From a virus, in the IMG/VR virus record IMGVR_UViG_3300043446_002688: a stretch of 64,000 nt of DNA. One strand, given 5' to 3'. The notes under the pieces were generated by a model. That model worked only from the letters and a program-made list of their open reading frames with translations. It was not told the DNA's origin and made no database searches. This document shows positions 21,937 to 47,127 of the stretch, one piece after another; position 1 is the stretch's first letter; the number at the start of each line of letters is the position of its first letter. The translations under genes and the position numbers were made by a program.

Positions 21937-21938
21937 TT

Positions 21939-33500: not shown

Positions 33501-36500
33501 AATGCAGCATTTGCATTTGGTACTGGTAATTTTACAGTTGAGCTTTGGGCAAATTTTTCAAACGCTAGCGCATCTGGTTTATATTTCATAGATGCAAGAA
33601 ATTCAGGAGCCACAGGCACATGGGCCTTCTTTAGAAATTCTTCTAATAATCTTGTATGGTATACTGGTTCTGCTGACGGCGCAACTGCTTCATTGGCAAC
33701 AATAAACACTTGGGTCCATCTTGCTTATACAAGACAAAACACCACCGGTAGGTTGTTTATTAACGGAGTACTGTCTGCCACTACAACCGATAGTACAAAT
33801 TATTCAATCTCACCTAGTATTTCTTATATTGGCTCTAGATACTCGGTTGTAGAATTAATACAGGGATATATTTCTGATTTACGAGTGGTTAAAGGTACTG
33901 CACTATACACTGCTAACTTTTTACCACCACAGACACCATTAACAGCAGTTGCAAACACACAGTTGTTAACTTGTCAATATAATGGCGGTGCAACAAACAA
34001 TGGATTTTTGGACCAATCTAGTTTCAACCTTCCAATCACAAGAAATGGTAATACAACACAAGGCACATTTAGTCCGTATAGTCAAACTGGTTGGAGTAAT
34101 TACTTTGATGGTACTGGAGATTATTGGACCATTCCAGATAACACTGCTCTGCAAATGGGTACAGGTGACTTTACTCTAGAGTTTTGGTATTACTTCAATT
34201 CGTTGGCAAGTTATCAAACATTGTATAGTAAAGGATACACTCTGGCCGGAGGTATTGTTGTACAAACAGGTAACGGTACAGGTAGATTGATTGTATATGC
34301 ATCTGGTTCTGCGGTGATAACCGAAACGGGAACAGGCACGGTTGGTGTATGGTACCATTATGCTTTGGTAAGAAGTGGTACAACACTAACATTGTATAGA
34401 GATGGTGTATCAACTGGAACCGCAACAAACTCAACAAACTTTAACAACACTGGTTTAGTATATGCCGGTGATACTACTTATCCAATGAACGGATATATGA
34501 GTAATCTTAGATTGGTTAAAGGTCAGGCAGTTTACACAGGAGCTTTCACGCCACCAACAACACCGTTAACAGCAACAGCAAATACACAGTTGTTAACATG
34601 TCAATCAAATAGATTAGTTGACAACTCACTCAATAATTTTACAATTACTAAGGTTGGCGATACAACAGTACAATCATTTAGTCCATTCGGTGGCGTAACA
34701 AGTGTGCCAGCAAGTTATAGTTTATACTATGACTATTTGACAATTCCTGATAATACAGCATTTACTTTCGGTTCAAGTGACTTTACAATAGAAAGTTGGG
34801 CGTATGCTACAGCCAGAACTGCATCATATATTATTTTTGCTCAAACAGATAATTCCACAGCGGCTGGTTCTTCTGTTATTTTATATGTCACCTCAAATGC
34901 ATTAAATGCATTGGTATATTATGGAGGTACAAGTTACTATTCTCTTGTTGATCCAACTTATTTCCCATTAAATGCCTGGACACACGTAGCATTGGTAAGA
35001 AAAACAACCACATTATCACTATATGTAAACGGTACAAGAGTTGCAACAACTTCAGCAGGAACAAGTGTAGTTAATGATTCTTCAGCTACTGTTAGCATTT
35101 ATGCAAGAAACACACAAGGAGATATGTTTAGTGGTTACCTATCAAACTTGCGAGTGGTTAAAGGTACTGCTGTATATGATGCAACACAAACATCATTTAC
35201 AGTACCCACTTCACCATTAACAGCAGTGGCAAATACAAGTTTGTTGACCTTGGTAACAAATAAATTTGTTGATATTGGTCCAAACAATTTGACAATAACT
35301 CCTGGTGTTCCAAAAATAACTTCATTTAACCCATTTGGTTTGACAAATACAACACAAGTATCATATTCACCAAGTGTGAATGGTGGCAGTATGTATTTTG
35401 ATGGTAGTGGTGATTACTTAACAATTCCATCTACTAATCTAGTAGCACTGACCGCAGATTTTACTATTGAACTGTGGTTATATTTAACTGCAACTGCTGG
35501 AACAAGTTCTGGAATGATTATACATAATAGTCCAGCAAGTGCTGGTACTTACTGGGCATTATTTGTTAACGCAGCATCAAGTATTGCTTGGTTGAAACCT
35601 GATGGAAATTTTCAGGCACTTTCAAGTGTGTTATTAAATCAATGGATTCACCTTGCAGTAACTCGTTCCGGAACAACAATATATTATTTCCTTAATGGTA
35701 CATTGGTTACTAGTTCTACTGTAACAACAGCAAACTTCAGCACACAAAATACAGTTTATATCGGTGGTGGACCTGCTAGTTATTTCGCATCTGCAACATC
35801 AATAACTGGTTATATCAGTGATGCACGAATTACTAAATCCGCATTGTATACATCAAACTTCTATCCACCAACCACACCACTAACACCAACAACTACAATT
35901 GGTGCAAACACATATCTCTCAAATCTATTAGTGAGTGGAACAAGTGGTGGTATCATTGACTATCACAGTACTAACAACTTAGAAACAGTTGGTGATGTAA
36001 AATTGGCCAGTGAGGATCCATACAGTGGTAGTTATTATAGTAACTATTTTGATGGAACAGGTGATTATTTAAGTATTGCAGATAACACTGCTTTTACTCT
36101 TGGATCAGGTGACTTTACTATTGAATATTGGATTAATGTACCATCACTTCCATCAATTGCTGGTTACATCTATGGTCAATGTGATGCATCAGCAACCACA
36201 GCCAGTCGCAATGTGTATGATACAGTTGCCTCAGATGGAACTATACAAACACAAATTTATTTCAATGGAAGTTCTACTTTATCTATCACAAGCGTTTCAA
36301 CCTTAACTACTGGAAGATGGAGTCATATTGCTGTGGTCAGAAATGGAACCACAATACGACAGTACTTTAACGGTGTTCAGCAAGGTACAGCAAATATTTC
36401 TACAAACTCATTAAATGACTCATCTAGTAATTTTGCTATAGGAAGATTAGGAGACTATACATCCAATTCGTTACTTGGGTCTGTTTCTAATTTTAGAATA

Positions 36501-37202
36501 ATAAAGGGTACATGTTTATATCCTAACGGAACAGCATTCACGCCAAGTACTACACCACTAACCGCAGTATCAAGTACAAGTTTGTTAACCTGTCAATCAA
36601 ATAGTTTCAAAGATAATAGTACTAATAATTTTACTATTACTAGAAATGGAGATACAAAAGTTCAATCAAGAAACCCATTCCAACAAAACACTGGAAAGAG
36701 TATCTACTTTGATGGTACCGGTGATTATTTAACTATACCAGTTTCACCTAATATGACTTTTGGGTCATCAGACTTCACTTTTGAAACTTGGGTATATCCA
36801 ACAGATGTATCCTCGTTGCAATCAATATTATACTTAAATGCAAACACATCAGGTTATGCTGCACTTGCTTTACAAATACAAAGTGGTGCTCTGAACTTAT
36901 GGATGTCCTCAACCGGATCTGCTTGGTCATTGCAACAAGGTTCAATAGGCACAATAGTTGCTGGTGTCTGGACACATATTGCTGTTACTAAGAGTGGTAC
37001 CACCATGAAAGTGTATATCAACGGAACTCAAGCTGGTACCAACTACACTGTGGCACAATCACTGATGACAACATATACACTGAATCAAATCGGAGTTTAT
37101 AACACATCATCATATTTATTAACTGGATATCTAAAAGACCTAAGAATCACTAGAGGTGTTAGAACAATTTCGGTGCCTACATCACCGTTGGAAATTAAAT
37201 AA
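30552..37202 (+). CDS. Giant adhesin: IPT/TIG plus Ig-like (He_PIG) repeats plus 8 LamG/ConA-like lectin domains (2216 aa)
   Basis: Eight units begin YFDG[TS]GDYL-like and contain FT.E.W.Y, W.H.A.[VT]R.G, GYISNLR and LLTCQ. N-terminal GGQTIVVYGSGF (IPT) and SLPPGTTLSTTGVLSG (Ig). Confidence 0.85.
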   Translation: MYNSGRRGKRANDGYGILSQADRFNQTEYPIPIVTSFAVTDGSYVPLDDTAASTAGGQTIVVYGSGFAPGATIMVGGTTISSVTYLDQGRLTFTSPANTSGSYTIIVINANGGTGILVPGLVYSGVPTWSTSAGSVGSVYERTSVSSTFVATGDAPVTYSILSGSLPPGTTLSTTGVLSGSAPAESGSTTYSFTIRATDGQLQDSDRSFSLTINTDVVSWSSPTNNQVISSYEYTPISNVTASATSAAGYGVVYSANAVPTGINLNASSGVISGTVNTVGNTYTRLTATANTTTRTAIRDVVFNINSDVVTWNTPANNYVISAYEYSAISNVTANATSAAGFGVLYSANTTPTGITLDANTGLISGTPTTVGNTYALLTATANTTTRSNTRNIIYNVNQDLVTWSSPADQTAYSLQGGSPIANVTLSATSAAGRTITYTANALPSGLAISGSVIYGTPDTAQTVTTLLTATANTTNRTATRTISWTINLGDTYWKYTSLLLSANTPTPTFINDASLNNAQLTIVGDTRPSNFDPYMGGYYSNYFDGTGDYLSFTPNSSLAIGSNAFTFEAWVYPTSSATAGIWGNGNGASANPYVYLNSLVPSLFFLNVGIAVGPALTLNRWNHVAVVRSSGTIKIYTNGVSGTGVSDANVLISAGPMTIGGASDGTQVLSGYISNLRLLNGTALYTTNFTPPTAPLTAVANTVLLTCQSNRLIDNSNNNFAITKNGDTTVSSAHPFITPTTVAYNTQYSTYFTGNTNDSVSIASAGTPLNLDGDFTVEFWILKTAYSTNGYTQYLNTGWNSQAFKSQNTGALYFYNGTSYSYTGAVVPLGTWTHIAWVRSGTSSRVYVNGTGSTTLTTLTATITWGTGTFRVGSDAGVGVGETLIGNISNLRIIKGTAIYDLTQSTITVPTAKLTAISGTSLLTCQDATLKDNSTNALTITSSGNAQPITVSPFTMTTSNTTVTSLGSAYFDGTGDYLTLPSNAAFAFGTGNFTVELWANFSNASASGLYFIDARNSGATGTWAFFRNSSNNLVWYTGSADGATASLATINTWVHLAYTRQNTTGRLFINGVLSATTTDSTNYSISPSISYIGSRYSVVELIQGYISDLRVVKGTALYTANFLPPQTPLTAVANTQLLTCQYNGGATNNGFLDQSSFNLPITRNGNTTQGTFSPYSQTGWSNYFDGTGDYWTIPDNTALQMGTGDFTLEFWYYFNSLASYQTLYSKGYTLAGGIVVQTGNGTGRLIVYASGSAVITETGTGTVGVWYHYALVRSGTTLTLYRDGVSTGTATNSTNFNNTGLVYAGDTTYPMNGYMSNLRLVKGQAVYTGAFTPPTTPLTATANTQLLTCQSNRLVDNSLNNFTITKVGDTTVQSFSPFGGVTSVPASYSLYYDYLTIPDNTAFTFGSSDFTIESWAYATARTASYIIFAQTDNSTAAGSSVILYVTSNALNALVYYGGTSYYSLVDPTYFPLNAWTHVALVRKTTTLSLYVNGTRVATTSAGTSVVNDSSATVSIYARNTQGDMFSGYLSNLRVVKGTAVYDATQTSFTVPTSPLTAVANTSLLTLVTNKFVDIGPNNLTITPGVPKITSFNPFGLTNTTQVSYSPSVNGGSMYFDGSGDYLTIPSTNLVALTADFTIELWLYLTATAGTSSGMIIHNSPASAGTYWALFVNAASSIAWLKPDGNFQALSSVLLNQWIHLAVTRSGTTIYYFLNGTLVTSSTVTTANFSTQNTVYIGGGPASYFASATSITGYISDARITKSALYTSNFYPPTTPLTPTTTIGANTYLSNLLVSGTSGGIIDYHSTNNLETVGDVKLASEDPYSGSYYSNYFDGTGDYLSIADNTAFTLGSGDFTIEYWINVPSLPSIAGYIYGQCDASATTASRNVYDTVASDGTIQTQIYFNGSSTLSITSVSTLTTGRWSHIAVVRNGTTIRQYFNGVQQGTANISTNSLNDSSSNFAIGRLGDYTSNSLLGSVSNFRIIKGTCLYPNGTAFTPSTTPLTAVSSTSLLTCQSNSFKDNSTNNFTITRNGDTKVQSRNPFQQNTGKSIYFDGTGDYLTIPVSPNMTFGSSDFTFETWVYPTDVSSLQSILYLNANTSGYAALALQIQSGALNLWMSSTGSAWSLQQGSIGTIVAGVWTHIAVTKSGTTMKVYINGTQAGTNYTVAQSLMTTYTLNQIGVYNTSSYLLTGYLKDLRITRGVRTISVPTSPLEIK

Positions 37203-37205
37203 ATA
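37198..37205 (+). promoter_or_regulatory. Late promoter candidate AATAAATA
   Basis: Overlaps the stop codon of the 30552 gene; 15 nt before the ATG at 37221. Confidence 0.55.
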
Positions 37206-37220
37206 ATATAAAAAAGTAAA

Positions 37221-38246
37221 ATGACAACAAAAATACAACCAGCAAACATTGACCAAACACTGGACTACTCAGTTGACCAATTGTCGGCCAATACGGTCGT
37301 GGTTTCTGGTGTTGATGTATTGAGTTATGCACAGTCAGCATTTTTACAGGCAAATTCCTCTTTTGTTCAAGCAAATTCAGCATACACTCAGGCAAACACA
37401 GCAACTACCAACGCAGCAACTGCTGATTCTAAGGCTGTTAGTGCTGGTTCTTATGCAAATGCTGCATTTGTTCAGGCGAACACCGACTACACAACATTAT
37501 CAACAATAAATGGTGTATATGGCGGTTCATCAAATATTCCAGTTATCACTTTGGCCGCAAACGGACGTGTTTCTTCAATCACAAACACATCCATTTCCAT
37601 TCCTGCTGGAACATCCGTATACGGCAACACAGGTCAAATCACCGCAAACGTGTCAACAGGCACTGTTGCTCTAGGTCTTGCTACAACAGCAGTAACTCCT
37701 GGTGTTTATGGTGGCACATCAAATACTGTTACAATAACAGTAGACGCATATGGTAGAGTCACTGCATTATCAAATAATGCCATTAGTGGTGGTGGTGGAG
37801 GTGGTGCAACACTATCGGCGGTTGCTGCAGCAACCACATATTATATCGGACTATCAGCAAGTTCTTCCGGCACTTGGACAGATGCAAGAGTTGATACATC
37901 CAACTTATATTACAGTTCTGCAACAAGCACATTATATTCCACAAACTTTAATACCAGTTCAGATGAGAACCTAAAGTCATCTATTGAAACTATACTAAAT
38001 GCATTAGAAACTGTTAATCTATTAAGAGGTGTTAGTTTCCTTTGGAAGAGTAATGGATTAAAATCGTATGGTGTGATTGCTCAGGAATTAGAAAAGATTA
38101 TTCCTGATTTAGTTACGACAGATGCCAACGGTAGAAAGACTGTTAACTATAATGCTTTGATTGGTTTTTTAATTGAAGCCATCAAAACACAATCAACACA
38201 AATACAAAGTCTAGAAGAAAGAATCACCAGGCTGGAGGAAAAATAA
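37221..38246 (+). CDS. Short fibre with C-terminal peptidase S74 chaperone (341 aa)
   Basis: NTSSDENLKSSI...LRGVSFLWK...YGVIAQELEKIIPDLV...VNYNALIGFLIEAIK; GVYGG..TVDAYGRVT shaft motifs. Confidence 0.85.
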   Translation: MTTKIQPANIDQTLDYSVDQLSANTVVVSGVDVLSYAQSAFLQANSSFVQANSAYTQANTATTNAATADSKAVSAGSYANAAFVQANTDYTTLSTINGVYGGSSNIPVITLAANGRVSSITNTSISIPAGTSVYGNTGQITANVSTGTVALGLATTAVTPGVYGGTSNTVTITVDAYGRVTALSNNAISGGGGGGATLSAVAAATTYYIGLSASSSGTWTDARVDTSNLYYSSATSTLYSTNFNTSSDENLKSSIETILNALETVNLLRGVSFLWKSNGLKSYGVIAQELEKIIPDLVTTDANGRKTVNYNALIGFLIEAIKTQSTQIQSLEERITRLEEK

Positions 38247-39418
38247 TGGCCTTCAATTTTAGTAACGGTGATACACTTGATAAAAAATATTTAAAAGAAT
38301 CCGATTTAATTGATAATTATATCGGTAATAGATTGTGGGCGTGGGGACTGAATAACCACGGTCAGTTAGGAAATAATGCGACTGGTAATTACAACGGTAG
38401 TCCGTTACAAACTATTTCAGGTGGAACTAATTGGAAGCAAACATCCACGGGATATTATCACATTGCTGGAATAAAAACTGATGGCACCTTATGGTTGTGG
38501 GGCGATAATCGTTATTATGGACAGTTAGGAGATAACACAACAACCAAAAAATCTAGCCCTGTACAGACTATAAGTGGTGGCAATAATTGGAATCTTGTCT
38601 CGTGTGGATCCTACTACACAACAACAATTAAAACTGACGGAACGTTGTGGTTATGGGGCAGAAACAATGTTGGTCAATTAGGAACCAATAACACAACCAA
38701 CTATTCCAGTCCCGTTCAAACCATTGCTGCTGGAAATAATTGGAAAAAATTAAGTGCCGGTTTTCAACACGTTGCTGCAATTAAAACCGATGGCACACTG
38801 TGGTTGTGGGGCCAAAATAATAATGGTCAATTGGGCGACAATACTCTAACCAATAAAAGTAGTCCAGCACAAACATTTGGTACCGGAAATAATTGGAATC
38901 AAGTGAGTGTTGGCTCAAGTTTTACTGCTGCGATTAAAACAGATGGTACCTTATGGTTGTGTGGTAATAATCAATATGGTCAATTAGGTGATAACACAAC
39001 AACCAATAAATCCAGTCCTGTACAAACAATTGCAGGCGGAAATAATTGGAAGTCAGTTTCTGCCAGCATTGGTGGCCACATTAGTGCTATTAAAACAGAT
39101 GGTACGTTGTGGCTCTTTGGAAATAATGGTAATGCTCAACTAGGTGATAATACCACAGTATCCAAATCGAGCCCAGTTCAAACTATAACCGGTGGAACAA
39201 ATTGGAAATCTGTTGCTACCGGTTCAAGCCATACTGCCGCTATTAAGACTAATGGCGAGCTGTGGCTTTGGGGGAGTGATGCGTTCGGCCAATTAGGAAC
39301 CAATACTTTTACATCCACATCCAGTCCAGTCCAAACTATATCCAGTGGAACAAATTGGAAACAAGTTTCTTGTGGGTATCTTATTACCTCAGCAACGACT
39401 TTTTCGGATCTACAATAA
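38246..39418 (+). CDS. RCC1/BLIP-II 7-blade beta-propeller protein A
   Basis: Seven ~52-aa repeats AIKTDGTLWLWG.N..GQLG.N.....SSPVQT..GG.NWK.VS.G. Confidence 0.9.
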   Translation: MAFNFSNGDTLDKKYLKESDLIDNYIGNRLWAWGLNNHGQLGNNATGNYNGSPLQTISGGTNWKQTSTGYYHIAGIKTDGTLWLWGDNRYYGQLGDNTTTKKSSPVQTISGGNNWNLVSCGSYYTTTIKTDGTLWLWGRNNVGQLGTNNTTNYSSPVQTIAAGNNWKKLSAGFQHVAAIKTDGTLWLWGQNNNGQLGDNTLTNKSSPAQTFGTGNNWNQVSVGSSFTAAIKTDGTLWLCGNNQYGQLGDNTTTNKSSPVQTIAGGNNWKSVSASIGGHISAIKTDGTLWLFGNNGNAQLGDNTTVSKSSPVQTITGGTNWKSVATGSSHTAAIKTNGELWLWGSDAFGQLGTNTFTSTSSPVQTISSGTNWKQVSCGYLITSATTFSDLQ

Positions 39419-39432
39419 TAAGGAATATAATA

Positions 39433-40077
39433 ATGTTTGTAATCGTATACAATAATCAAGTAATTCTAGGGCCAATGCCATGGAGAAAGTTTTTCTTTGA
39501 AAACATCATAGAAGAAGATTGTGAAGTTCAAGTAACACTACCACAAAAAAATGATGTCCCGTACACAGTAAATGATGAAATTGTCATTCTTCCAGCAAGA
39601 TATACACATGAAGAACACAATCCAATAACACAAAAACACAACGGTCCTTTCTGGACTATTACTGAAACAGAAGCAGTAGGTAATTTTGTTGCGATAGACA
39701 AAGATGTAGAACATTTAAAATCTGAATTGAAACAAATTGTTGCAGATAAAAGATGGAAGAAAGAAGTCGGCGGAATTAAAGTTACTATCAATGATATAGA
39801 ATATTCAGTTGATACCTCTCGTGAAGGTAGAAAAATATACATTGAACAATTACAAATGAACTCTAGTTCATATGATTGGAAGTTCAATGAGGGTTATGTA
39901 ACATTATCTTTGGTTGATTTACAAAATATTGTTCAATCTATTAATGAACATATACAAAATTGTTTTGCAGAAGAACGCAATAGAATCAATCTTATTGATA
40001 GTAAAACATCATTAGAAGATTTAGAATTATTACACAATGAATTTAATCCAAGGGTGACCTTAAATGGCATACAGTGA
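39433..40077 (+). CDS. DUF4376-like fibre-associated protein
   Basis: Start re-called at ATG 39433 (AGGA RBS at 39421). C-terminal RWKKEVGGIKV...DTSREGR...DWKFNEGYVTLS..DLQNI...HIQNCFAEE resembles DUF4376. Confidence 0.7.
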   Translation: MFVIVYNNQVILGPMPWRKFFFENIIEEDCEVQVTLPQKNDVPYTVNDEIVILPARYTHEEHNPITQKHNGPFWTITETEAVGNFVAIDKDVEHLKSELKQIVADKRWKKEVGGIKVTINDIEYSVDTSREGRKIYIEQLQMNSSSYDWKFNEGYVTLSLVDLQNIVQSINEHIQNCFAEERNRINLIDSKTSLEDLELLHNEFNPRVTLNGIQ

Positions 40078-41275
40078 AAGTGGAGTTCCTATACCCATTG
40101 ATGGATATTTTAGTCCAGGTGGATATGTAACTAAACAATATTTGTTTGATGCATATCCACAACTTAGTGACCAAGCAAAGAGTGCTGGATTGTGGGGATG
40201 TGGTTATGCTCTCGTCGGTCAACTGGGCGACAGAACTAGTGTTGACAAGTCTAGCCCAGTACAAACTATATCGGGGGGCGCCAACTGGAAGCAAGTAACA
40301 TCCAGTTGGGGGCCATCGGCAGCAGCAATCAAAACAGACGGTACCCTGTGGTTATGGGGATATAATGCTTATGGTGAATTAGGTAACAATAACACAAATT
40401 CAGTCAGTTCTCCCGTACAGACAATTAGTGCAGGGACGAACTGGATTCAAGTTGGCGCCGGAGATAGAACATTTGGAGCAATCAAAACAGATGGCACATT
40501 ATGGATGTGGGGGAAAAATAACTCTGGCCAGTTGGGCGATAACACTGCAACTAATAGATCCAGTCCAGTTCAAACAGTATCTGGTGGAACTAATTGGAAG
40601 TACACCACTGGTGGAGATTTGTTTATGTCAGCAATCAAAACAGACGGTACCCTGTGGTTATGGGGAGACAACGGCAATGGTCAATTGGGTACAAATAATA
40701 CAACCAATAGGTCAAGTCCAGTACAAACTATATCCGCTGGTACCAATTGGAAACAGGTTTCAGCTGGCGGATCAACAGTTGCGGCAATCAAAACAGACGG
40801 TACCCTGTGGTTATGGGGATTTAATGGTTATGGTGGGTTGGGTGATAATACGAGCGTAAGAAAATCCAGTCCAGTTCAAACGGTTTCTGGTGGAAATAAT
40901 TGGAAACAGTGTTCTGTCAGTAGTTACAATCATATTGCATCCATTAAGACTAATGGTACCCTGTGGTTATGGGGTAATAATAATTATGGTCAATTAGGTA
41001 CAAATAATACAACCAATACGTCAAGTCCAGTGCAAACTATATCCGCTGGTACCAATTGGAAACAGGTTTCAACTGGCAATTACAGTACATACTCTTTGAA
41101 AACGGATGGCACTCTTTGGACTTGGGGAGCTAATTTTTATGGTAATCTGGGAACCAATAACACAACACATTACTCTAGTCCAGTGCAAACAGTTAGTGGT
41201 GGAACTAATTGGAAACAAATTAGCGGCGGAACAGGAAAATTTTTTGCCATCAAAGATTTTAATGAGGACTTCTAA
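40064..41275 (+). CDS. RCC1/BLIP-II 7-blade beta-propeller protein B
   Basis: Seven repeats of the same consensus as protein A. Confidence 0.9.
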   Translation: MAYSESGVPIPIDGYFSPGGYVTKQYLFDAYPQLSDQAKSAGLWGCGYALVGQLGDRTSVDKSSPVQTISGGANWKQVTSSWGPSAAAIKTDGTLWLWGYNAYGELGNNNTNSVSSPVQTISAGTNWIQVGAGDRTFGAIKTDGTLWMWGKNNSGQLGDNTATNRSSPVQTVSGGTNWKYTTGGDLFMSAIKTDGTLWLWGDNGNGQLGTNNTTNRSSPVQTISAGTNWKQVSAGGSTVAAIKTDGTLWLWGFNGYGGLGDNTSVRKSSPVQTVSGGNNWKQCSVSSYNHIASIKTNGTLWLWGNNNYGQLGTNNTTNTSSPVQTISAGTNWKQVSTGNYSTYSLKTDGTLWTWGANFYGNLGTNNTTHYSSPVQTVSGGTNWKQISGGTGKFFAIKDFNEDF

Positions 41276-41277
41276 TC

Positions 41278-42417
41278 ATGTCGTATAATAATTTAGAGGA
41301 ATTGTTGGTACCGGTAAGTTATTTTAACCAAGGCGGATTGTGGTCATGGGGATACAACGGATTTGGAGCTGCTGGTGATGAAACCTTAGTCAATAGATCC
41401 AGTCCTGTGCAAACTGTTGCTTCCGGATCAAATTGGAAATTAGTTGGAATCGGTGGCTATCATAATGCAGCAATAAAAACAGACGGCACGTTATGGACAT
41501 GGGGATATAATAGCAATGGTACATTAGGTAATAACACAACCGCTAGCACATCCAGTCCTGTGCAAACAATTGCAGCCGGTACAAATTGGAAGTATGTATA
41601 TTCTAATCAAATGTCAGTGTTCGCAATCAAAACAGACGGATCATTGTGGGTATGGGGAAATAATGGAAACGGTCAACTGGGAACAGGTAACATCACAAAT
41701 TATTCCAGTCCTGTACAACTTGGTACAGAAAAAAATTGGAAATTAATTTCTTCTAATTCATACTTTTCTGCGGCAATCAAAACAGATGGCACGTTATGGA
41801 CATGGGGATATAACAATGACGGTACTTTGGGTGATAACACAAGAATAGACAAATCTAGTCCTGTACAAACAATTGCAGCCGGTACAAATTGGAAATCAAC
41901 ATCAACGGGAATATATCATGTAACAGCAATCAAAACAGATGGTACACTATGGTTATGGGGCAGAAACAATGTTGGTCAATTAGGTACAAATAATATAACA
42001 AACAGGTCTAGTCCAGTTCAAACTGTTGCAGGTGGAACTAATTGGAAACAATCATCTGGCGGACAGTCTCATACTGCCGCAATCAAAACAGATGGTACAC
42101 TATGGTTGTGGGGCCGAAACATTTATGGTCAATTAGGAACCAACAACATAACAGATTATTCAAGTCCAGTTCAAACTGTTGCATCGGGTACCAATTGGAA
42201 ACTATTGGCATGTGGAAGAAACCATACTGCCGCAATCAAAACAGATGGCACATTATGGTTATGGGGTTATAATAATTATGGCCAATTAGGTGATAATACA
42301 GTACTGTCTAAATCTAGTCCAATACAAACAATTTCAGGTGGTACTAATTGGAAACAAGTATCCTCTGTGGGGTTTAACACATCCGCAATCAACGGCACCT
42401 GGAGAACCATCACTTAA
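41278..42417 (+). CDS. RCC1/BLIP-II 7-blade beta-propeller protein C
   Basis: Seven repeats of the same consensus as protein A. Confidence 0.9.
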   Translation: MSYNNLEELLVPVSYFNQGGLWSWGYNGFGAAGDETLVNRSSPVQTVASGSNWKLVGIGGYHNAAIKTDGTLWTWGYNSNGTLGNNTTASTSSPVQTIAAGTNWKYVYSNQMSVFAIKTDGSLWVWGNNGNGQLGTGNITNYSSPVQLGTEKNWKLISSNSYFSAAIKTDGTLWTWGYNNDGTLGDNTRIDKSSPVQTIAAGTNWKSTSTGIYHVTAIKTDGTLWLWGRNNVGQLGTNNITNRSSPVQTVAGGTNWKQSSGGQSHTAAIKTDGTLWLWGRNIYGQLGTNNITDYSSPVQTVASGTNWKLLACGRNHTAAIKTDGTLWLWGYNNYGQLGDNTVLSKSSPIQTISGGTNWKQVSSVGFNTSAINGTWRTIT

Positions 42418-42443
42418 ACATCAGGAAACTGAACATATATAAT
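42414..42443 (+). promoter_or_regulatory. Possible sigma70-like promoter for the enzyme island
   Basis: Perfect TATAAT at 42438-42443 in the intergenic gap; only a weak -35 (TTAAAC/TAAACA) at 17-18 nt spacing. Confidence 0.35.
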
Positions 42444-42473
42444 AGTATCATCAGATTATTATTGTGAAATATT

Positions 42474-43037
42474 ATGAAACTAAACCTTGGATCCGGTTCA
42501 AAAAGAATTCCCGGTTATTTAAATATTGATAATGATGCTGGTTCAAAACCAGATTTTGTTATCGACTTAGAAAAAGATAAACTACCATTTGAAGATAGTT
42601 CTGTGGACAGTATTATTGCTCATCACATACTAGAACACCTGGGTGATGGGTTTTTTCATTGTGTCAAGGAACTATACCGTGTGTGTAAACACGGCACAAC
42701 GATTGATGTTAGAGTTCCACATCCTAGACACGACACATTCTTAATAGACCCCTCTCATAAAAGACCTGTATATCCACACACATTGGATATGTTCTCTAAA
42801 GAACGTAACCTAAGAGATATTGCCGCAGGTGGATGTGAAACACCTATTGGTTTAATCAATAATGTTGACATGCGTGTTTTAAATTTTTCTCCTGTTTTGG
42901 ATGAATATTGGCAAAAACAATTTCAACAAATGACCGAAGAACAGTGTGAACATGCAGCAAGGTCTTTTAATAATGTTATCAATGAATATCATATACAATG
43001 GGTAGTTTATAAAGATGAATCCGTTATCGACCGCTGA
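42474..43037 (+). CDS. Class I SAM-dependent methyltransferase (type 11-like)
   Basis: Motif I KLNLGSGSKR, DL...LPFEDSSVDSIIAHHILEHL and VRVPH...DPSH. Confidence 0.85.
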   Translation: MKLNLGSGSKRIPGYLNIDNDAGSKPDFVIDLEKDKLPFEDSSVDSIIAHHILEHLGDGFFHCVKELYRVCKHGTTIDVRVPHPRHDTFLIDPSHKRPVYPHTLDMFSKERNLRDIAAGGCETPIGLINNVDMRVLNFSPVLDEYWQKQFQQMTEEQCEHAARSFNNVINEYHIQWVVYKDESVIDR

Positions 43038-44334
43038 ATTTTTTATTAAAATTAAACAAAGTGAGAAAGCTAAAATAGTTCTAGACCTTCTTAAACCATA
43101 TGCCACCGGTTTGGGTGAAATGGACCAACTAGGTAAATTATATGCCGAGATTAGAGAGTTCAATGATACACTAGAACTGGCACAAAAAATGTATGCATTG
43201 GTGACCAACGATGATGCCAGATTTGATGCAAGAGTTAATATCATTCGTGCATATCTAAACCTTAACAAGCCAAAAGAAGCATTGGTTTATATCGGTATTA
43301 ACGAAAAGGAAAGACCAAATGACCATCCAAATCAAATGGATAAGGCAATGGCATATTTCTTACTTGACAGAAAAGATGAAGGTGAAAAGATACTGAGAAA
43401 CATTTTAACCGAGCCGCACACAGATGATATTGATTTTAGAGTAAACTTTAATCTAGGTACATATGACTTACGTAATGGAAATTTCAAAGAAGGTTTGAGG
43501 CATGTGTTACTAGATGGTAGAAAATTAAACATCTGGGAATCATTCAACTTTCCAAAAAATCAACTATGGGAAGGCACACCACAACCGGGTAAAACAATCG
43601 TGCTTTGTGCCGAAGGTGGTATTGGTGACGAAATCATTTCAGTTAGATTTATGAAACACTTTAAAGATGTTGGAATGAATCCTATTTGGTTTACAAATAG
43701 AAAAGATATTGCAAGCATTTTCAATCGTTGTGGTTTTGAAACGGTAACAAATCTTAAAGAAATATCATATGATTGGTTATGGACATATTCTATGCCAAGC
43801 CCAACTTACTTGGATTTAGAAGAAGATGATTTATGGTACGGCACATATCTGAAACCATTAAACGTTTCACCTAAATTACCAAACACTGGCAAAAAGAAAA
43901 TTGGCATCAAGTGTATGGGTAATCCAAAGTATGACCAAGACTTACATAGAACTATTCCATTTGAAGAATTGATTGATAGTATTCCGGAAGATTATGAAAT
44001 TTATTCTTTTCACATAGATGAAGATTTTAGTCATCCTAGAGTTATACAATTAAAAGATAAAATTAAAACCTGGGACGATACACTTGATTACATCAATCAA
44101 ATGGATATTGTGGTTTCTAGTTGTACATCATTGATACATGCAGCCGGTGCAATTGGAAAACAATCAGTTGTTATTATTCCAATTCTAACATATTACACTT
44201 GGGCAAAACCAGAGTATCACACCAAATGGTATGGTGATAATCTGACAATCTTCAGGCAAAGTGAGTATGATAATTGGAAAGCACCATTACTTGAATTGAA
44301 TGATTATTTGAAGAATGAAAATACAAACAATTAA
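43015..44334 (+). CDS. TPR-repeat protein fused to a GT-B (GT9-like) glycosyltransferase domain
   Basis: Helical TPR-like N-half, then LWEGTPQPGKTIVLCAEGGIGDEIISVRF, IGIKCMGNP and WDDTLDYINQMDIVVSSCTSLIHAAGAIGK. These match the EQG.GD / W.G.P / D.V.T.DT...HLAGA.G motifs of TPR-glycosyltransferases. Confidence 0.8.
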   Translation: MNPLSTAEFFIKIKQSEKAKIVLDLLKPYATGLGEMDQLGKLYAEIREFNDTLELAQKMYALVTNDDARFDARVNIIRAYLNLNKPKEALVYIGINEKERPNDHPNQMDKAMAYFLLDRKDEGEKILRNILTEPHTDDIDFRVNFNLGTYDLRNGNFKEGLRHVLLDGRKLNIWESFNFPKNQLWEGTPQPGKTIVLCAEGGIGDEIISVRFMKHFKDVGMNPIWFTNRKDIASIFNRCGFETVTNLKEISYDWLWTYSMPSPTYLDLEEDDLWYGTYLKPLNVSPKLPNTGKKKIGIKCMGNPKYDQDLHRTIPFEELIDSIPEDYEIYSFHIDEDFSHPRVIQLKDKIKTWDDTLDYINQMDIVVSSCTSLIHAAGAIGKQSVVIIPILTYYTWAKPEYHTKWYGDNLTIFRQSEYDNWKAPLLELNDYLKNENTNN

Positions 44335-44668
44335 TATAAATCTATCTTCCATAAAATCTGAAGAGCCGGAAGAAATTGTGCCGTGTGGCACCTGTACACT
44401 TTGTTGTGAAAAATTATCACCATTTCTATCACCGGAAGAAGTTGCTTCAGGATTATATCCATTGAGTTTAATAAATCCAACAATAGAACAAAAACAAATT
44501 AATCCAGATATCGGACCCGTTGTCGTTTTATACAGAAAGAAAGAAGGTGGATGTGGAATGTTTATTGACGGCAAATGTTCGATATATGAATACAGACCTA
44601 AAGCTTGCAGACAATTTGATTGTCGCAAAGGACACCACCCAACTATACCCAACATGATTGACAAATGA
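44315..44668 (+). CDS. YkgJ/FliB-like CxxCxxCC cysteine-cluster (Zn/Fe-S) protein
   Basis: CGTCTLCC ... CGMFIDGKCSIYEYRPKACRQFDC. Confidence 0.85.
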   Translation: MKIQTININLSSIKSEEPEEIVPCGTCTLCCEKLSPFLSPEEVASGLYPLSLINPTIEQKQINPDIGPVVVLYRKKEGGCGMFIDGKCSIYEYRPKACRQFDCRKGHHPTIPNMIDK

Positions 44669-45450
44669 AAACATTACATTTTTTATCAGGATTACCAAGA
44701 TCCGGATCAACATTACTGGCGAGTATACTAAACCAAAACCCACAGGTATATGTAACACCCACAAGTCCTATGTTGAATGTGACAGTGAAGATGCAGGACG
44801 CATGGAGAGAAGATCCGACAGTCAAAGCAAACTACTTTGAGGAACAAGCACGCAATATTACCAAAGCAGTTCTTCCTGCTTTTTGGCAGCACAGACCAGA
44901 ACCCATTATCATAGATAAAGGTAGAGGTTGGGCAAAGAATATGTTAACAGCCAATGCGTTGTTTGAAAAGAAAATCAAAGTCATTGTAATGGAACGAGAC
45001 TTACCCAGTATTATGGCTAGTTGGTTAACTATTATCAGAAAACAAAAAGAATGTTACTTAGACGAAACCATTATGCGTAAAGGTTTTCCGCCAACCGATG
45101 ATAACCGCATGGCAGAGATGTGGTTTGATATGGTCAAAGACTGCATGGAAGGTACATATCAAATTAAAAAAGAAGTTCCTGACCAAATAGTGGTGGTGAC
45201 ATATGATGATTTGATGAATGATGCCAGAACACAACTACAAAGAATTGAAGATTTTTTAGAGTTACCAAAATTCAATTATGACTTTGAAAACATCATCAAC
45301 GATACCGTAGATGACGATTTGGTGGCCTGGGGTTTTGATGGGTTACACACCATCAGACCTAAGTTGGAAAAAACCGCAAAAGATCCAAGAATTATTTTGG
45401 GTGACGAACTATACAATAGATTTGTGGAATTAGAAAAACAATATGTATAA
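44665..45450 (+). CDS. PAPS-dependent sulfotransferase (Sulfotransfer_3-like)
   Basis: 5'-PSB loop FLSGLPRSGSTLLASIL; IIDKGRGW; 3'-PB motif MERDLPSIMAS; YDDLM..A...L..I.DFL. Confidence 0.85.
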   Translation: MKTLHFLSGLPRSGSTLLASILNQNPQVYVTPTSPMLNVTVKMQDAWREDPTVKANYFEEQARNITKAVLPAFWQHRPEPIIIDKGRGWAKNMLTANALFEKKIKVIVMERDLPSIMASWLTIIRKQKECYLDETIMRKGFPPTDDNRMAEMWFDMVKDCMEGTYQIKKEVPDQIVVVTYDDLMNDARTQLQRIEDFLELPKFNYDFENIINDTVDDDLVAWGFDGLHTIRPKLEKTAKDPRIILGDELYNRFVELEKQYV

Positions 45451-46336
45451 TGTATTAAATTTTATTCACACATCAAACTTTTACAATGAAGAACAAGTTA
45501 AAGGATTGAACTCAATAGTAAATACTTTAGTGTATGCACCTACTGAATTTGGTAGTGTTAATACAGGTTTTAATTATATTCAACCAGATGCAATCAAAAC
45601 ATTCAGTGAAGTATTAAATACAAAAGTAACAATCAGTGAAGAATCCGGTTACTTTTACAAGCCAAATACAGGAATTAGATACAATACTTTCACAAATTAC
45701 ACCGAGTGGAAATTTGTTGTTGCAATTCAACCAACAATCTTTACGATGTTTTACCACAAAACTGGTGTCACTTCTGCTCTACAAAATTATAATTTTAATT
45801 ACAATAATCTTTTTGAGTGGGAATACCAGACACAGATATTAATGGAACCAGGTCAAGGATTATTTTATAGGCCATGGATGTTTCATGCCTTCAGTGAGCC
45901 AACAATCATTCAGTCGTTTGATATAACAGAAAATCCAACACCACTATCAAATACCATTTTAGTTATGGGTGAAAAAGGTTCCGGAAAAACCACTTTCAGT
46001 AAAAAATTAGCAGACAGACTGAAGGCCACATATATACATGGTGAAACGATAAACGAAATGTTTAACGATACCGATACATCCATAGAAGGTGAAAACAGAC
46101 AGGCCGAACGATTGAAAAAGTTGGCAGTGTTGGCACCAACAGAGTTTACGGTTATAGATTTCAAATGTGAACGTTTATCATCACGTGATTACTTATCACC
46201 CAATTTTGTGGTTTGGATGAATACCGTGGAAATAAAGTCGGACACCTTTGAAATACCTAAAAGAGCAAATGTGGTATATGATTCTTTCGATATTAATATG
46301 GATAAATTTATTGACAAAATGATGGAGAAAAAATGA
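45443..46336 (+). CDS. Fusion of a DUF6445/2OG-Fe(II)-like DSBH domain and a degenerate APS-kinase-like P-loop domain
   Basis: N-half EWKFVVAIQ...FYHKTG...EWEY...PGQGLFYRPWMFHA. C-half ILVMGEKGSGKTTF aligns by eye with the kinase half of the next gene. Confidence 0.6.
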   Translation: MYNVLNFIHTSNFYNEEQVKGLNSIVNTLVYAPTEFGSVNTGFNYIQPDAIKTFSEVLNTKVTISEESGYFYKPNTGIRYNTFTNYTEWKFVVAIQPTIFTMFYHKTGVTSALQNYNFNYNNLFEWEYQTQILMEPGQGLFYRPWMFHAFSEPTIIQSFDITENPTPLSNTILVMGEKGSGKTTFSKKLADRLKATYIHGETINEMFNDTDTSIEGENRQAERLKKLAVLAPTEFTVIDFKCERLSSRDYLSPNFVVWMNTVEIKSDTFEIPKRANVVYDSFDINMDKFIDKMMEKK

Positions 46337-47127
46337 CACAACGAATTTTAATTATGGGATTGCCAGGTTCTGGTAAAACATACCTAGCACAATATGTACT
46401 GGATCATTTACAATCAGCCAACAAGAAAGTTGGTTGGTTGAATGCTGATGATGTACGCAAAAAATATAATGACTGGGACTTCAGTACAGAAGGAAGAATC
46501 AGGCAAAGTCACCGCATGAGAGAACTGGCAGACTCCATGACTGATATGGATTATGTCATCTGTGATTTTGTGGCACCTTTGGTTGAAATGCGTAACAACT
46601 TCAAAGCAGACTGGACTGTGTGGGTTGACACTATCGAAAAGGGGAGATTTGAAGATACCAACAAGGCTTTTATTCCACCAGAGGTATATGATTTTAGAAT
46701 CACGGAACAGAACAGTGAAAAATGGAGTGAATTTATTGCACACCACATCTTAGGAAACTTCCGTAGACCAGTATTTGACTGGCAAAAAGAAACGGTACAA
46801 ATGTTAGGTCGTTGGCAACCATGGCATGCTGGTCACCGTGCTTTGTTTGAGCGTGCAATTCAAAAGACAGGTCAGGTCGTAATACAGATTAGAGACTGTC
46901 AAGGTTGGCAAGGATCAAATCCTTTTGCAATCGAACAGGTCAAACAATATATCAGACGAGACTTGGACCCTATTTACCAGGGAAAATATGAAATTCAGGT
47001 TGTGCCAAATATTGTAAACATTACCTATGGACGTGATGTGGGATATAAGATTGAACAAGAGGTATTTGATGATAAGACACATGAAATCTCTGCTACAAAA
47101 ATTCGTAAATCAATGGGCCTTAAATAA
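46333..47127 (+). CDS. APS-kinase-like domain fused to a HIGH-superfamily nucleotidyltransferase (candidate minimal PAPS synthase)
   Basis: GLPGSGKT P-loop, WLNADDVR, DWDFSTEGRIRQ and ICDFVAP (CysC-like). Then GRWQPWHAGH (46807-46836), YGRDVG (GRD at 47029-47037) and ISATKIR. Confidence 0.7.
   Translation: MTQRILIMGLPGSGKTYLAQYVLDHLQSANKKVGWLNADDVRKKYNDWDFSTEGRIRQSHRMRELADSMTDMDYVICDFVAPLVEMRNNFKADWTVWVDTIEKGRFEDTNKAFIPPEVYDFRITEQNSEKWSEFIAHHILGNFRRPVFDWQKETVQMLGRWQPWHAGHRALFERAIQKTGQVVIQIRDCQGWQGSNPFAIEQVKQYIRRDLDPIYQGKYEIQVVPNIVNITYGRDVGYKIEQEVFDDKTHEISATKIRKSMGLK

Follow-up and report, generated by a model that had tools for sequence, protein, structure and literature searches.

RCC1-type propellers with a variable, tyrosine-rich face in the tail-fibre module of a freshwater T4-like phage: probably fast-evolving host-binding parts of the virus particle

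Introduction

Why would a T4-like phage carry three RCC1-type propellers among its tail-fibre genes, and what would such proteins do there? The question is raised by a 64-kb stretch of DNA (hereafter, the window) from an uncultured freshwater T4-like myovirus related to cyanophages, in which the genes RCC_A, RCC_B and RCC_C sit among the tail-fibre genes, that is, in the host-recognition module. An earlier note on this DNA had proposed that they form a repertoire of BLIP-II-like binding proteins, serving either as receptor-binding tips or as inhibitors of host envelope enzymes. Given that the proteins combine a fixed scaffold with a variable, tyrosine-rich face, we consider them to be probably fast-evolving host-binding parts of the virus particle.

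Results

The features discussed here are listed in Table 1. The fibre protein that precedes RCC_A carries its Peptidase_S74 domain at residues 247-299 (Pfam PF13884, E 1.9e-13) and matches many PHROG tail-fibre families (top match phrog_5668, E 3.5e-34), and the stop of its gene overlaps the start of RCC_A. The earlier note had described an array of three propellers at 38246-42417; three propeller genes are indeed found there, with open reading frames at these limits and seven units in each, but they are not contiguous, as a DUF4376 gene, which had been missed, separates the first from the second. The product of this gene matches Pfam PF14301 (E 2.6e-9) and phrog_10508, annotated "tail fiber protein" (E 5.6e-17), its 3' end overlaps the start of RCC_B by 14 nt, and its position between RCC genes is kept in related loci. 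DUF4376 proteins have been shown by experiment to be tail-fibre chaperones (PMC7289586, PMC10579305). All junctions from the fibre gene to RCC_C are either overlapping or 2-14 nt long; eight large fibre-like ORFs lie upstream of the propeller genes, and neck, gp15, terminase and sheath genes lie downstream. What is more, the order S74 fibre, RCC1, DUF4376, RCC1, RCC1 recurs in many uncultured phages (IMG/VR loci), the fibre-propeller order is also found in Synechococcus phage S-SRM01, and RCC_A groups with the position-1 propellers of related loci (SH-aLRT 89).

Table 1. Coordinates of the genes, the exchanged cassette and the conversion tracts in the window
Feature	Position	Strand	Remarks
Short tail-fibre protein (S74 fibre), 341 aa	37221..38246	+	C-terminal Peptidase_S74 intramolecular chaperone domain
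RCC_A, 390 aa	38246..39418	+	Seven-blade RCC1-type propeller; position 1 (fibre, RCC_A, DUF4376)
DUF4376 protein, 214 aa	39433..40077	+	Homologue of Alteromonas phage V22 and A5 tail-fibre chaperones
RCC_B, 403 aa	40064..41275	+	Seven-blade RCC1-type propeller
RCC_C, 379 aa	41278..42417	+	Seven-blade RCC1-type propeller
Recently exchanged cassette, 1 kb of RCC_C	41394..42393		Sliding identity against metagenome contig L033
Tract 1	41931..41972		10 of 32 L033 differences in 42 nt; blade C5, WG-loop
Tract 2	42138..42192		16 of 32 L033 differences in 55 nt; blade C6, GQLG loop to D-A loop
TPR + GT9-fold glycosyltransferase (TPR-GT9), 439 aa	43015..44334	+	Conserved RCC1-gene neighbour; possible propeller modifier

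The propellers themselves are bare: their N-terminal extensions measure 3-25 aa, neither an anchor nor a trimerisation domain is recognisable, and inspection of the N-termini shows no signal peptide. Pfam detects 6-7 RCC1 repeats per protein (E 4.9e-64, 3.8e-53 and 1.2e-62 for RCC_A, RCC_B and RCC_C, respectively), and WD40_RLD scores above the gathering score in all three (236 bits in RCC_A). RCC_A and RCC_B match phrog_4219 (E 1.7e-49 and 3.7e-51), which is the second-best PHROG match of RCC_C. With units delimited by the S-S-P-V-Q and NWK motif anchors, blades are spaced 50-52 aa apart (a period of about 51 aa), giving seven units per protein and 21 in total. The first unit of each protein is without the AIKTDG strand, which the C-terminal tail supplies in a velcro closure. 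While the full motif had been claimed for all 21 blades, it is carried, as AIKTDGTLWLWG...GQLG...SSPVQT...NWK, by 18. Single deviations occur (WLCG, WLFG, NAQLG, GGLG, GNLG, GTLG, GAAG). Blades are 63% identical to one another in DNA and 62% in protein, and their invariant residues are written with as many as five synonymous codons, Ser with both of its codon families; the repeat is not a recent duplication.

The AF2 model of RCC_C (pLDDT 88.6, pTM 0.87) has four strands per blade, its best Foldseek match is UVR8 (TM 0.85, rmsd 2.0 A, 28% identity), and UVR8 is also matched in sequence (phmmer E 9e-56). The propellers are thus of the canonical four-stranded RCC1/UVR8 type and not, as had been suggested, of the BLIP-II type, whose blades are three-stranded (PMC6121496).

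Where, then, does the variability lie? In an alignment of 923 unique blades from about 110 related loci, HMM columns 6, 7, 23, 25, 26 and 36 are hypervariable (each above 3.3 bits), and the same six columns are entropy maxima among the window blades, coinciding with the stretches listed in the earlier note, namely those after WG, before SSP and after NWKxVS. They are rich in Tyr, Asn and Ser, with Tyr the top residue at columns 7, 23 and 26 across the family; in the 18 full blades of the window, Tyr occupies 20 of the 108 positions, and Tyr, Phe and His together 25. The columns align with W285, R286, W94, D96, F97 and D107 of UVR8, and the Trp and Arg residues in this set belong to the dimer, i.e. 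protein-protein, interface (PMC4501546). The topology of the model assigns columns 6 and 7 to the A-B turn and columns 23-36 to the C-D loop, and these lie on the same face. Taking D96 and D107 to be dimer-interface residues as well, five of the six aligned positions are interface positions, and, as most of the aligned UVR8 residues build its dimer interface, the six columns share one face of the propeller.

The same columns also stand apart in their rate of change. Namely, in close pairs dN/dS is about 1.2 at the six columns and 0.18-0.26 at the other 45 (Fisher p <= 1e-9), these comparisons being few and, owing to conversion tracts, partly non-independent. With the variable columns gathered on one face and non-synonymous change concentrated there, the picture of a constant scaffold bearing variable, tyrosine-rich loops holds good. 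That said, omega at the six columns is not significantly above 1 in close pairs (p 0.34-0.45), so positive selection is not demonstrated, and relaxed constraint accounts for the loop variability equally well.

Some of the loop differences come from gene-conversion tracts and not from point changes. Within the cassette in Table 1, RCC_C is mostly 98-100% identical to its counterpart in contig L033, whereas the genes on either side of it there reach only 70-85% identity to those of the window; dS is 0.11 for RCC_C, but for the genes of the methyltransferase, TPR-GT9, CxxC and sulfotransferase it is 1.75-2.5. RCC_C was thus swapped recently, as a cassette, between diverged phages. Most of the remaining differences fall in two short inter-blade conversion tracts. 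In the first, the L033 version is nearest to blade A4 of the window, with 5 mismatches in 51 nt to window position 38791 and 8 to the allelic site. In the second, the C6 segment of L033 has 4 mismatches in 81 nt to blade C5 of L033 and 15 to C6 of the window; in L033 this tract is a copy of its own blade C5 made by inter-blade gene conversion. Blades B2, B4 and B5 of RCC_B are joined by in-register exact DNA runs of 36-38 nt. Finally, identity in the closest loci is about 58-62% for the propellers and 74-85% for the adjoining TPR-GT9; propellers more diverged than this neighbour are the pattern expected for host-range genes.

Discussion

That the three propellers are virion-borne accessory adhesins of the phage is a proposition to which we give about an even chance; we infer that they are present in the virion, attached to the fibres and in contact with the host. 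As free-standing, seven-bladed parts of the tail-fibre module, they carry on one face a ring of about 42 variable residues, rich in Tyr, Asn and Ser. Each blade contributes its A-B turn and both ends of its long C-D loop to this ring, which would contact a host-surface ligand, while the strands and the other face, with its KTDG and GGTNW turns, are kept constant. Diversity enters by three routes: amino acids at the six columns of each blade change at a near-neutral or faster rate, short gene-conversion tracts of about 40-55 nt are copied from one blade or paralogue to another, and diverged phages swap entire propeller genes.

An alternative that we find unlikely is that the propellers serve chiefly as substrates or partners of the modification island next to them (TPR-GT9, methyltransferase, sulfotransferase and PAPS-synthesis genes). 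By analogy with TibC and AAH, which heptosylate autotransporter adhesin repeats, each blade would be glycosylated or sulfated on its copy of the repeated Ser/Thr/Asn-rich loop [DT]-N-[TN]-T-T-N-x-S-S-P, and an invariant S-S-P with a Thr-rich stretch is indeed present in every one. TPR-GT9 (AF2 model pLDDT 91.7) has the TPR plus GT-B layout of the protein glycosyltransferases OGT and SPY, which its whole chain resembles (Foldseek E 3e-8), and among the matches of its GT9-fold C-domain are WaaF (1psw, Z 16.5) and TibC, a protein heptosyltransferase (4rap, Z 15.7, 240 aligned). A homologue occurs in 31 of 42 dereplicated RCC1 loci, in 22 of them adjacent and within 300 nt of an RCC gene, a count biased by the selection of the loci through RCC_C; it is kept even in very divergent loci, at 28-34% identity, and some loci fuse a GT-like to a sulfotransferase-like domain in a gene sited between RCC genes. 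However, GT9 enzymes are mostly LPS heptosyltransferases, so the targets could be host envelope sugars; the island could act on other virion proteins, such as the Asn/Ser/Thr-rich upstream fibres; and the adjacency may be plain conserved synteny of the structural region. Modification would also fit with a role in the virion, to which it may add a further layer without being a real rival.

We think it distinctly improbable that the roles of the two faces are reversed, i.e. that the propellers are multivalent lectins whose conserved face binds a repeated host polysaccharide by avidity, through seven near-identical sugar sites per propeller (Trp, Asn, Lys, Thr and Asp of the GTNWK and KTDG turns), with the variable face an unconstrained surface. 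Lectins built as propellers with a site in every blade form an established class, the blades here resemble one another unusually closely, selection has preserved W50, K13, T14, D15, G16 and N49 although synonymous sites are saturated, and relatives carry fusions to carbohydrate-associated domains (e.g. CHB_HEX_C_1 and Fn3_assoc in locus L097). Yet the conserved turns belong to the normal build of an RCC1 repeat as well, and both the Tyr/Ser/Asn/Gly composition and the equivalence to the UVR8 interface favour the variable face as the interaction surface.

The option of soluble, non-virion proteins acting as BLIP-II-like inhibitors or as intracellular effectors of host enzymes, part of which the earlier note had entertained, comes out weaker still, and we hold it to be very unlikely. 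RCC1-superfamily propellers are generic protein binders, BLIP-II being a picomolar inhibitor (PMC6121496), and a virion-anchor domain is absent from all three propellers. On the other hand, BLIP-II is secreted and three-stranded, unlike these proteins with four-stranded 51-aa blades and, by inspection, no signal peptide; in sequence and fold they match best to UVR8, HERC, RPGR and RCC1, with no BLIP-II among PDB sequence hits at E <= 1e-5 or among the Foldseek matches listed; and the genes are embedded in the fibre module, translationally coupled to the fibre and to the fibre-chaperone homologue. Targeted hypermutation by a diversity-generating retroelement, which the Asn-rich variable codons, superficially like AAY-based variable regions, might suggest, is effectively refuted and has next to no chance of being right, for no other part of the 64-kb window holds a template-like repeat of the RCC region, the mismatches between the most similar blades are without adenine specificity, and the variable columns include Gln, Lys and Met, none of which an NNY codon can encode.

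Returning to the proposed accessory adhesins, similar phage genes are already known. The closest isolate, at 58% identity to RCC_C, is S-SRM01 (Kyanoviridae, Serangoonvirus), with gp335, gp337 and gp344; their sole annotation is "regulator of chromosome condensation", and the paper on the genome does not discuss them. Its genes run S74 fibre, RCC1, DUF4376-like, RCC1 and TPR protein, with an RCC1 and a sulfotransferase gene further on, and in its clade positional orthologues of the window propellers are recognisable; however, the third propeller lies five genes away from the other two, and the TPR protein is only 29% identical to that of the window. More distant relatives have been detected by mass spectrometry in virions, namely gp237-239 of coliphage W70, three tandem RCC1 proteins of phrog_4219 found in purified virions, and GAP_001 of Cronobacter phage GAP32, with an RCC1/BLIP-II domain (IPR009091); for the former, the authors' guess, taken from the name, was a role in DNA condensation (PMC11370258, PMC5259590). 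The W70 genes resemble ours in being tandem, 40-kDa, single-propeller genes of the family that is the best PHROG match of RCC_A and RCC_B, but they lie outside the W70 structural module, and W70 is absent from our tblastn hits at E <= 1e-5. Phages 121Q and PBECO4 have multi-copy sets of RCC1-repeat proteins. No analysis of variable faces, conversion or cassette exchange is reported for the RCC1 proteins of these four phages.

Among solved structures, the closest is Arabidopsis UVR8 (PDB 4D9S, 4DNW), of the same seven-bladed, four-stranded RCC1 fold, where W285 and R286, with which hypervariable columns coincide, lie in the GWRHT motif. UVR8, however, is a plant photoreceptor with fixed Trp and Arg where the phage columns vary, and as the phage proteins are without the GWRHT triad, no photoreception is implied. 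BLIP-II of Streptomyces exfoliatus shares the superfamily, the seven blades and the binding of a protein target, but it is a 28-kDa secreted protein (PMC6121496; PMC9218822) with no directly detectable sequence match to the phage propellers. A parallel in mode of evolution is offered by the HNWD (het-d/het-e) WD40 repeats of Podospora anserina, which are highly conserved internally, are exchanged within and between paralogues, and diversify at few surface positions on the interaction face (PMC1805685), much as conversion tracts and six fast columns on one face do here. The likeness has limits: the folds are of different families, one system is a fungal NLR and the other a phage, positive selection is not significant in our propellers, and homogenisation is weak in the window, where the repeats share only 63% identity in DNA and synonymous sites are saturated, so that it is mostly purifying selection that keeps the repeats alike. 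In the T-even phages T2, T6 and S16, the adhesin gp38 is made as a separate small protein from a gene directly downstream of that of the distal fibre, and hypervariable loops on its conserved framework set the host range. Its fold (a polyglycine-II sandwich) is unrelated and its attachment to the fibre tip is demonstrated, whereas that of the propellers is proposed; in outline, however, the two are alike, both being small separate proteins encoded next to a fibre gene, each with a fixed framework and variable loops.

Results

The window is a structural region of a T4-like myovirus, and the three propeller genes RCC_A, RCC_B and RCC_C lie there in a stretch (37221-44334) in which every gene is on the plus strand and closely packed against its neighbors (see the table). 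The earlier note had described an array of three propellers; three propeller genes are indeed present, but the DUF4376 gene interrupts them. It is the gene packing that argues for an operon, since all promoter and terminator scans were without signal: the window has no excess of the T4 late-promoter motif TATAAATA (5 found, 5.2 expected), which is absent from 37000-42500, and sigma-70 and terminator scans of the window stayed at background level.

Upstream of the module there are eight large fibre-like ORFs, which include a second S74 fibre as well as Gly_rich_2 and C1q-like domains. Judging by its domains, the 2216-aa protein directly upstream of the S74 fibre is a further candidate host-binding protein in the same module. 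At 22-26 kb, the GC content is 0.44-0.45, above that of the surroundings, and the GC skew is positive relative to them. Downstream of the module follow a modification island and then the T4 neck protein, gp15, the large terminase and the sheath. The terminase reaches no more than 56% identity with its counterparts in Prochlorococcus and Synechococcus myoviruses. For the propellers, the freshwater Synechococcus phage S-SRM01 is the nearest isolate (58% identity), and a megablast of the module against cultured phages gave no match. No tRNAs were found in the window.

Near-identical pieces of the region come exclusively from freshwater and riverine metagenomes, including freshwater samples from three further studies. 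The search of four freshwater runs covered short Logan contigs only, with many partial matches from other RCC1 repeats. In the runs X3 and X4, both from one other study, there are contigs approximately 99.5% identical to the methyltransferase and TPR genes (42542-44204) and approximately 94% identical to the DUF4376 gene (39586-39940). Short as they are, these contigs hint at a relative with near-identical flanks and possibly a different fibre/propeller segment.

Genes, regions and exchanged tracts of the propeller module and its surroundings, in window coordinates
Feature	Coordinates	Strand	Remarks
Fibre-like ORF	21900-24779		Gly_rich_2 domain
Fibre-like ORF	24812-27487		weak C1q-like match at its end
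2216-aa protein	30552-37202		directly upstream of S74 fibre; eight Laminin_G_3 (concanavalin-like lectin) and four He_PIG Ig-like domains
S74 tail fibre, 341 aa	37221-38246	+	C-terminal Peptidase_S74 chaperone domain
RCC_A, 390 aa	38246-39418	+	start overlaps stop of S74 fibre
DUF4376 protein, 214 aa	39433-40077	+	between RCC_A and RCC_B
RCC_B, 403 aa	40064-41275	+	14-nt overlap with DUF4376 gene
RCC_C, 379 aa	41278-42417	+	
Tract in RCC_C	41931-41972		version of contig L033 closest to a blade like window A4
Conversion tract in RCC_C	42138-42192		blade C6 of L033 copies L033's own C5, differing from it at 4 of 81 nt and from the window allele at 15
Modification island	42474-47127		between fibre module and neck genes
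Methyltransferase	42474-43037	+	
TPR protein (TPR-GT9), 439 aa	43015-44334	+	

Both by profile and by fold, the three proteins belong to the RCC1-like domain superfamily. The RCC1 profile (Pfam PF00415) scores 178-213 bits in all of them against a cut-off of 21.7, and WD40_RLD (PF25390) scores 227-236 bits against a cut-off of 150. In PHROGs all three fall into 'regulator of chromosome condensation' families, matching phrog_4219 at E 1.7e-49 (RCC_A), 3.7e-51 (RCC_B) and 3.3e-49 (RCC_C), with this family as the top one for RCC_A and RCC_B. This label is the name of a fold and not of a function, and a phage protein would be expected neither to exchange nucleotides on Ran nor to bind chromatin. 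For RCC_C, the AlphaFold2 model (pLDDT 88.6, pTM 0.87) contains 28 strands in seven sets of four, and its Foldseek matches include UVR8, HERC2, RPGR and RCC1 at TM 0.82-0.87; UVR8 is the closest solved structure (phmmer E 9e-56; Foldseek TM 0.85, rmsd 2.0 A). Split on the S-S-P-V-Q and NWK anchors, each protein gives seven units 50-52 aa apart. The count of 21 blades in the earlier note is thus real at seven per protein, except that each protein begins with a degenerate unit, whose inner strands come from the C-terminal tail. Within a blade of the RCC_C model, strand A (W-K-Q-V-S-x) is followed by the A-B turn G-x-x (columns 5-7 of the blade HMM), strand B (H-T-A-A-I-K), the B-C turn T-D-G-T, strand C (L-W-L-W-G), the C-D loop (columns 23-36), strand D (x-S-S-P-V-Q) and the D-A loop T-x-x-G-G-T-N.

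Which positions vary on this scaffold? In the 18 full window blades, 27 of the 53 alignment columns show little or no variation, and entropy peaks after NWK-x-V-S, at three positions after W-x-W-G and directly before S-S-P. The blade HMM, applied to 111 related loci, yielded 221 ORFs with 1,794 blades, and over the 923 unique blades used for column entropy the most variable columns are 6, 7, 23, 25, 26 and 36, each above 3.3 bits. The variable stretches singled out in the earlier note coincide with the peaks in both sets and, because the same columns peak over the 923 unique blades, they are a property of the whole family. The commonest residues at the six columns are Tyr (15-25% at four of them), Asn, Ser and Gly; in the window blades, Tyr makes up 20 of the 108 residues there.

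In a blade of four antiparallel strands, one face carries the A-B turn together with both ends of the C-D loop, and the other face carries the turns B-C and D-A. Since the six hypervariable columns sit in the A-B turn and the C-D loop, they are all predicted to share one face, with the opposite face nearly invariant. In a printed alignment with UVR8, columns 6, 7, 23, 25, 26 and 36 correspond to W285, R286, W94, D96, F97 and D107, respectively, where D96 and D107 are the salt-bridge partners of R286. Entry 6XZM, with its substitutions W285A, D96N and D107N, confirmed the chain offset of +8. The dimer interface of UVR8 consists of W233/W285/W337, W94 and R286/R338 (PMC4501546). The closest solved structure thus gives independent support to the placement of the variable columns on one face.

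Substitutions were compared by Nei-Gojobori counts on 3-6 close pairs, using only residues given the same blade column in both sequences. The six columns have a dN/dS of 1.2 (71 non-synonymous and 13 synonymous differences) and the other 45 columns one of 0.26, or 1.2 against 0.18-0.19 in stricter pair sets; the contrast between the two classes gives a Fisher p <= 1e-9, in counts made without a recombination model and with substitution events partly non-independent owing to conversion tracts. The excess of non-synonymous change that the earlier note had expected in the loops is therefore present. That said, omega above 1 at the six columns is not significant (binomial p 0.34-0.45, from 3-6 close pairs and crude Nei-Gojobori counts), and positive selection there is not established by these sequence comparisons.

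As for a mechanism of diversification, DGR hypermutation is excluded within the window: the RCC region has no template repeat outside itself, the mismatches show no bias to adenine, and the variable columns also hold Gln, Lys and Met.

The constant scaffold, for its part, does not stem from recent duplication and is held by purifying selection, because blades in the window are only 63% identical to each other in DNA and their invariant residues are coded by up to five synonymous codons, Ser by both TCN and AGY. Exact in-register runs between blades reach 36-38 nt (B2, B4, B5) and exceed a null obtained by permuting synonymous codons within columns (P = 0.003 for the maximum run). Under the same null, 13 blade pairs are expected to share runs of at least 17 nt, and 32 do. 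We read this as a signal of short gene conversion among blades, with exchange both within and between paralogues.

The DNA of a 96% relative was obtained from one metagenome scan, and the most informative relative is the metagenome contig JACCEE011081766.1 (L033). The methyltransferase, TPR, CxxC and sulfotransferase genes of L033 are 70-85% identical to those of the window in DNA (dS 1.75-2.5, dN/dS 0.03-0.05), and its upstream propeller has just 59% protein identity. RCC_C, however, is mostly 98-100% identical over 41394-42393. Since its whole-gene dS is 0.11, against 1.75-2.5 in the flanking genes, one entire propeller gene has been transferred recently by recombination between phages that are otherwise approximately 20% diverged. 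Within that kilobase, 26 of the 32 differences fall in the two tracts listed in the table.

In another locus (L034:321-1304), the RCC_C homologue is a six-blade ORF of 328 aa that misses exactly blade C6 (51 aa). In the sister contig L033 the two blades C5 and C6 hardly differ, so this loss reflects either unequal crossover or assembly collapse.

The family has at least 8,000 database matches at E <= 1e-10 and comprises single genes, tandem arrays and fused chains of up to 49 blades. Across the 111 loci, seven is the modal number of blades per protein, with fused proteins of 14, 21, 27 and up to 49. Four fused chains, namely L019:1413-9968 (2851 aa, 49 blades), L002:1656-5948 (1430 aa, 27 blades), L016:9805-13272 (1155 aa, 21 blades) and L024:5331-10472 (1713 aa, 29 blades), occupy the position of the window's separate genes, beside a TPR/GT-like gene, and have blade counts near multiples of seven. 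Pfam found no tail-fibre anchor domain attached to the propellers of the fused relatives; extra matches were weak or unrelated (LRR_5, CHB_HEX_C_1, sub-threshold MlaD/MlaC). In a further set of relatives, Gly_rich_2 is fused in one protein and there is a faint match to E217_Gp32.

A recurrent gene order, namely S74 fibre, RCC1, DUF4376, RCC1, optionally a small gene and one more RCC1 gene, methyltransferase and TPR protein, is shared by S-SRM01 and numerous loci from IMG/VR and metagenomes, with the propellers fused to chains in some. In the closest loci, the propellers are approximately 58-62% identical, as against 74-85% for the TPR protein. In a quick maximum-likelihood tree of propellers with SH-aLRT supports, positional orthologues are well supported in the S-SRM01 clade (93-98). 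The window's clade has a weak positional grouping, in which RCC_A goes with position-1 propellers and RCC_B and RCC_C both go with position-2 ones. In distant clades, paralogues group by genome (99-100), a pattern that fits lineage-specific duplication or homogenisation.

The modification island encodes the methyltransferase, the glycosyltransferase TPR-GT9, a CxxCxxCC protein, a Sulfotransfer_3 sulfotransferase, a P-loop protein and an APS-kinase-like protein fused to a small nucleotidyltransferase-like domain, for which PAPS synthesis is a possible role. PDB sequence searches with the TPR protein, as a single sequence or as a profile, returned TPR repeats only, and NCBIfam had no match for either the TPR or the DUF4376 protein. 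The catalytic fold emerged from structure search alone: in the TPR-GT9 model (pLDDT 91.7), the C-terminal domain has a GT9 fold (WaaF Z 16.5, Veillonella GT9 Z 16.1, the protein heptosyltransferase TibC Z 15.7, WaaC Z 15.1), and over its full length the model is similar to SPY and OGT, protein glycosyltransferases that also carry TPR repeats. A TPR-GT9 homologue is present in 31 of the 42 dereplicated RCC1 loci with enough flank, at most 300 nt from an RCC gene in 22, and these loci include homologues at only 28-34% identity. Proteins of 581-611 aa between RCC1 genes in four distant loci (L020:5116-6861, L021:4667-6436, L025:6124-7959, L026:6193-7965) match the window sulfotransferase as well as the GT-like portion of the TPR protein, which suggests a sulfotransferase-GT fusion with the TPR domain apparently replaced. 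The island is also mosaic, since L033 carries two insertions relative to the window, of approximately 500 nt at 43014 (methyltransferase/TPR gap) and approximately 1300 nt at 44308 (TPR/CxxC gap).

Discussion

What do these propellers do? In the Alteromonas phages V22 and A5, DUF4376 proteins have been shown experimentally to be tail-fibre chaperones, and their genes directly follow the fibre gene (PMC7289586, PMC10579305). Three tandem phrog_4219 RCC1 proteins were detected by mass spectrometry in purified W70 virions, and GAP_001, with an RCC1/BLIP-II domain (IPR009091), in GAP32 virions (PMC11370258, PMC5259590). Because of these chaperones and virion proteins, together with the gene position, the variability of one face, a binder-like composition and a turnover like that of host-range genes, our preferred view, to which we give an even chance, is that the propellers are virion-borne accessory adhesins of the fibre apparatus. 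The propellers have no anchor domain, and this, like the non-significant selection test, weakens the view. A complex prediction of RCC_B with the DUF4376 protein scored 0.00, a value that tells nothing about binding in either direction. In view of the conserved TPR-GT9, the Ser/Thr/Asn-rich loop of each blade could also be glycosylated, and perhaps sulfated by the adjacent sulfotransferase; this is doubtful, but would accord with a role as adhesins.

Taken together, freshwater T4-like phages could recognise their hosts with the propellers as a natural 'binder scaffold' in widespread use. Each propeller would be a monomeric head docked on the fibres with DUF4376 as its chaperone. Micro-conversion between blades and swaps of whole propeller genes between phages would remodel its Tyr-rich face of 42 residues, and the TPR-GT9/sulfotransferase island conserved alongside would glycosylate or sulfate its repeated Ser/Thr/Asn loops. 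We consider this combination, as a whole, quite unlikely; if true, phages would have a receptor-binding system that differs from the trimeric fibre tips described to date. If the propellers do bind hosts, they are a very common and uncharacterised class of phage receptor-binding module, whose monomeric, seven-fold repeated architecture differs from the trimeric tips that dominate models of host range. In having a fixed scaffold and six positions per blade that are free to vary, the propellers are reminiscent of engineered binder libraries, and they could be of practical use as protein scaffolds. What is more, the gene-precise cassette exchange would show a route by which host-range determinants pass between lake phages otherwise approximately 20% diverged. 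The family is very large, but arrays of this type are already annotated in cultured phages, and the function given here is inferred.

Some of this is already known. Highly repetitive RCC1/BLIP-II propellers, a few of them viral, have been catalogued (PMC9218822), and tandem phage RCC1 genes and their presence in virions (W70, GAP32) have been published, without functional analysis. The earlier note had interpreted the array of RCC1/BLIP-II propellers as a binding repertoire, which is supported in part: the constant scaffold, the one-face variability and the non-synonymous excess in the loops hold, but the BLIP-II type does not, and positive selection falls short of being established. In particular, BLIP-II is a 28-kDa protein with blades of approximately 40 aa and three antiparallel strands (PMC6121496), and the AlphaFold2 model has four-stranded blades of RCC1/UVR8 type, which here are 51 aa long in proteins of approximately 41-44 kDa. 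BLIP-II is also secreted, whereas the window N-termini MAFNFSNGDTLDKK, MAYSESGVPIPIDG and MSYNNLEELLVP have, by inspection, neither a basic n-region nor a hydrophobic core. Both blade architecture and secretion thus lead us to reject a BLIP-II-type membership. BLIP-II is likewise absent from the 32 PDB sequences at E <= 1e-5 and from the Foldseek matches listed, an absence with which a distant kinship would be compatible. Another known system is that of the Podospora HNWD WD40 repeats, which are exchanged among repeats and diversify at few surface positions (PMC1805685). Homogenisation is much weaker in the window, where whole-blade DNA identity is just 63%; the likeness lies in the exchange between repeats, seen here as conversion tracts, and in the few fast columns of each blade.
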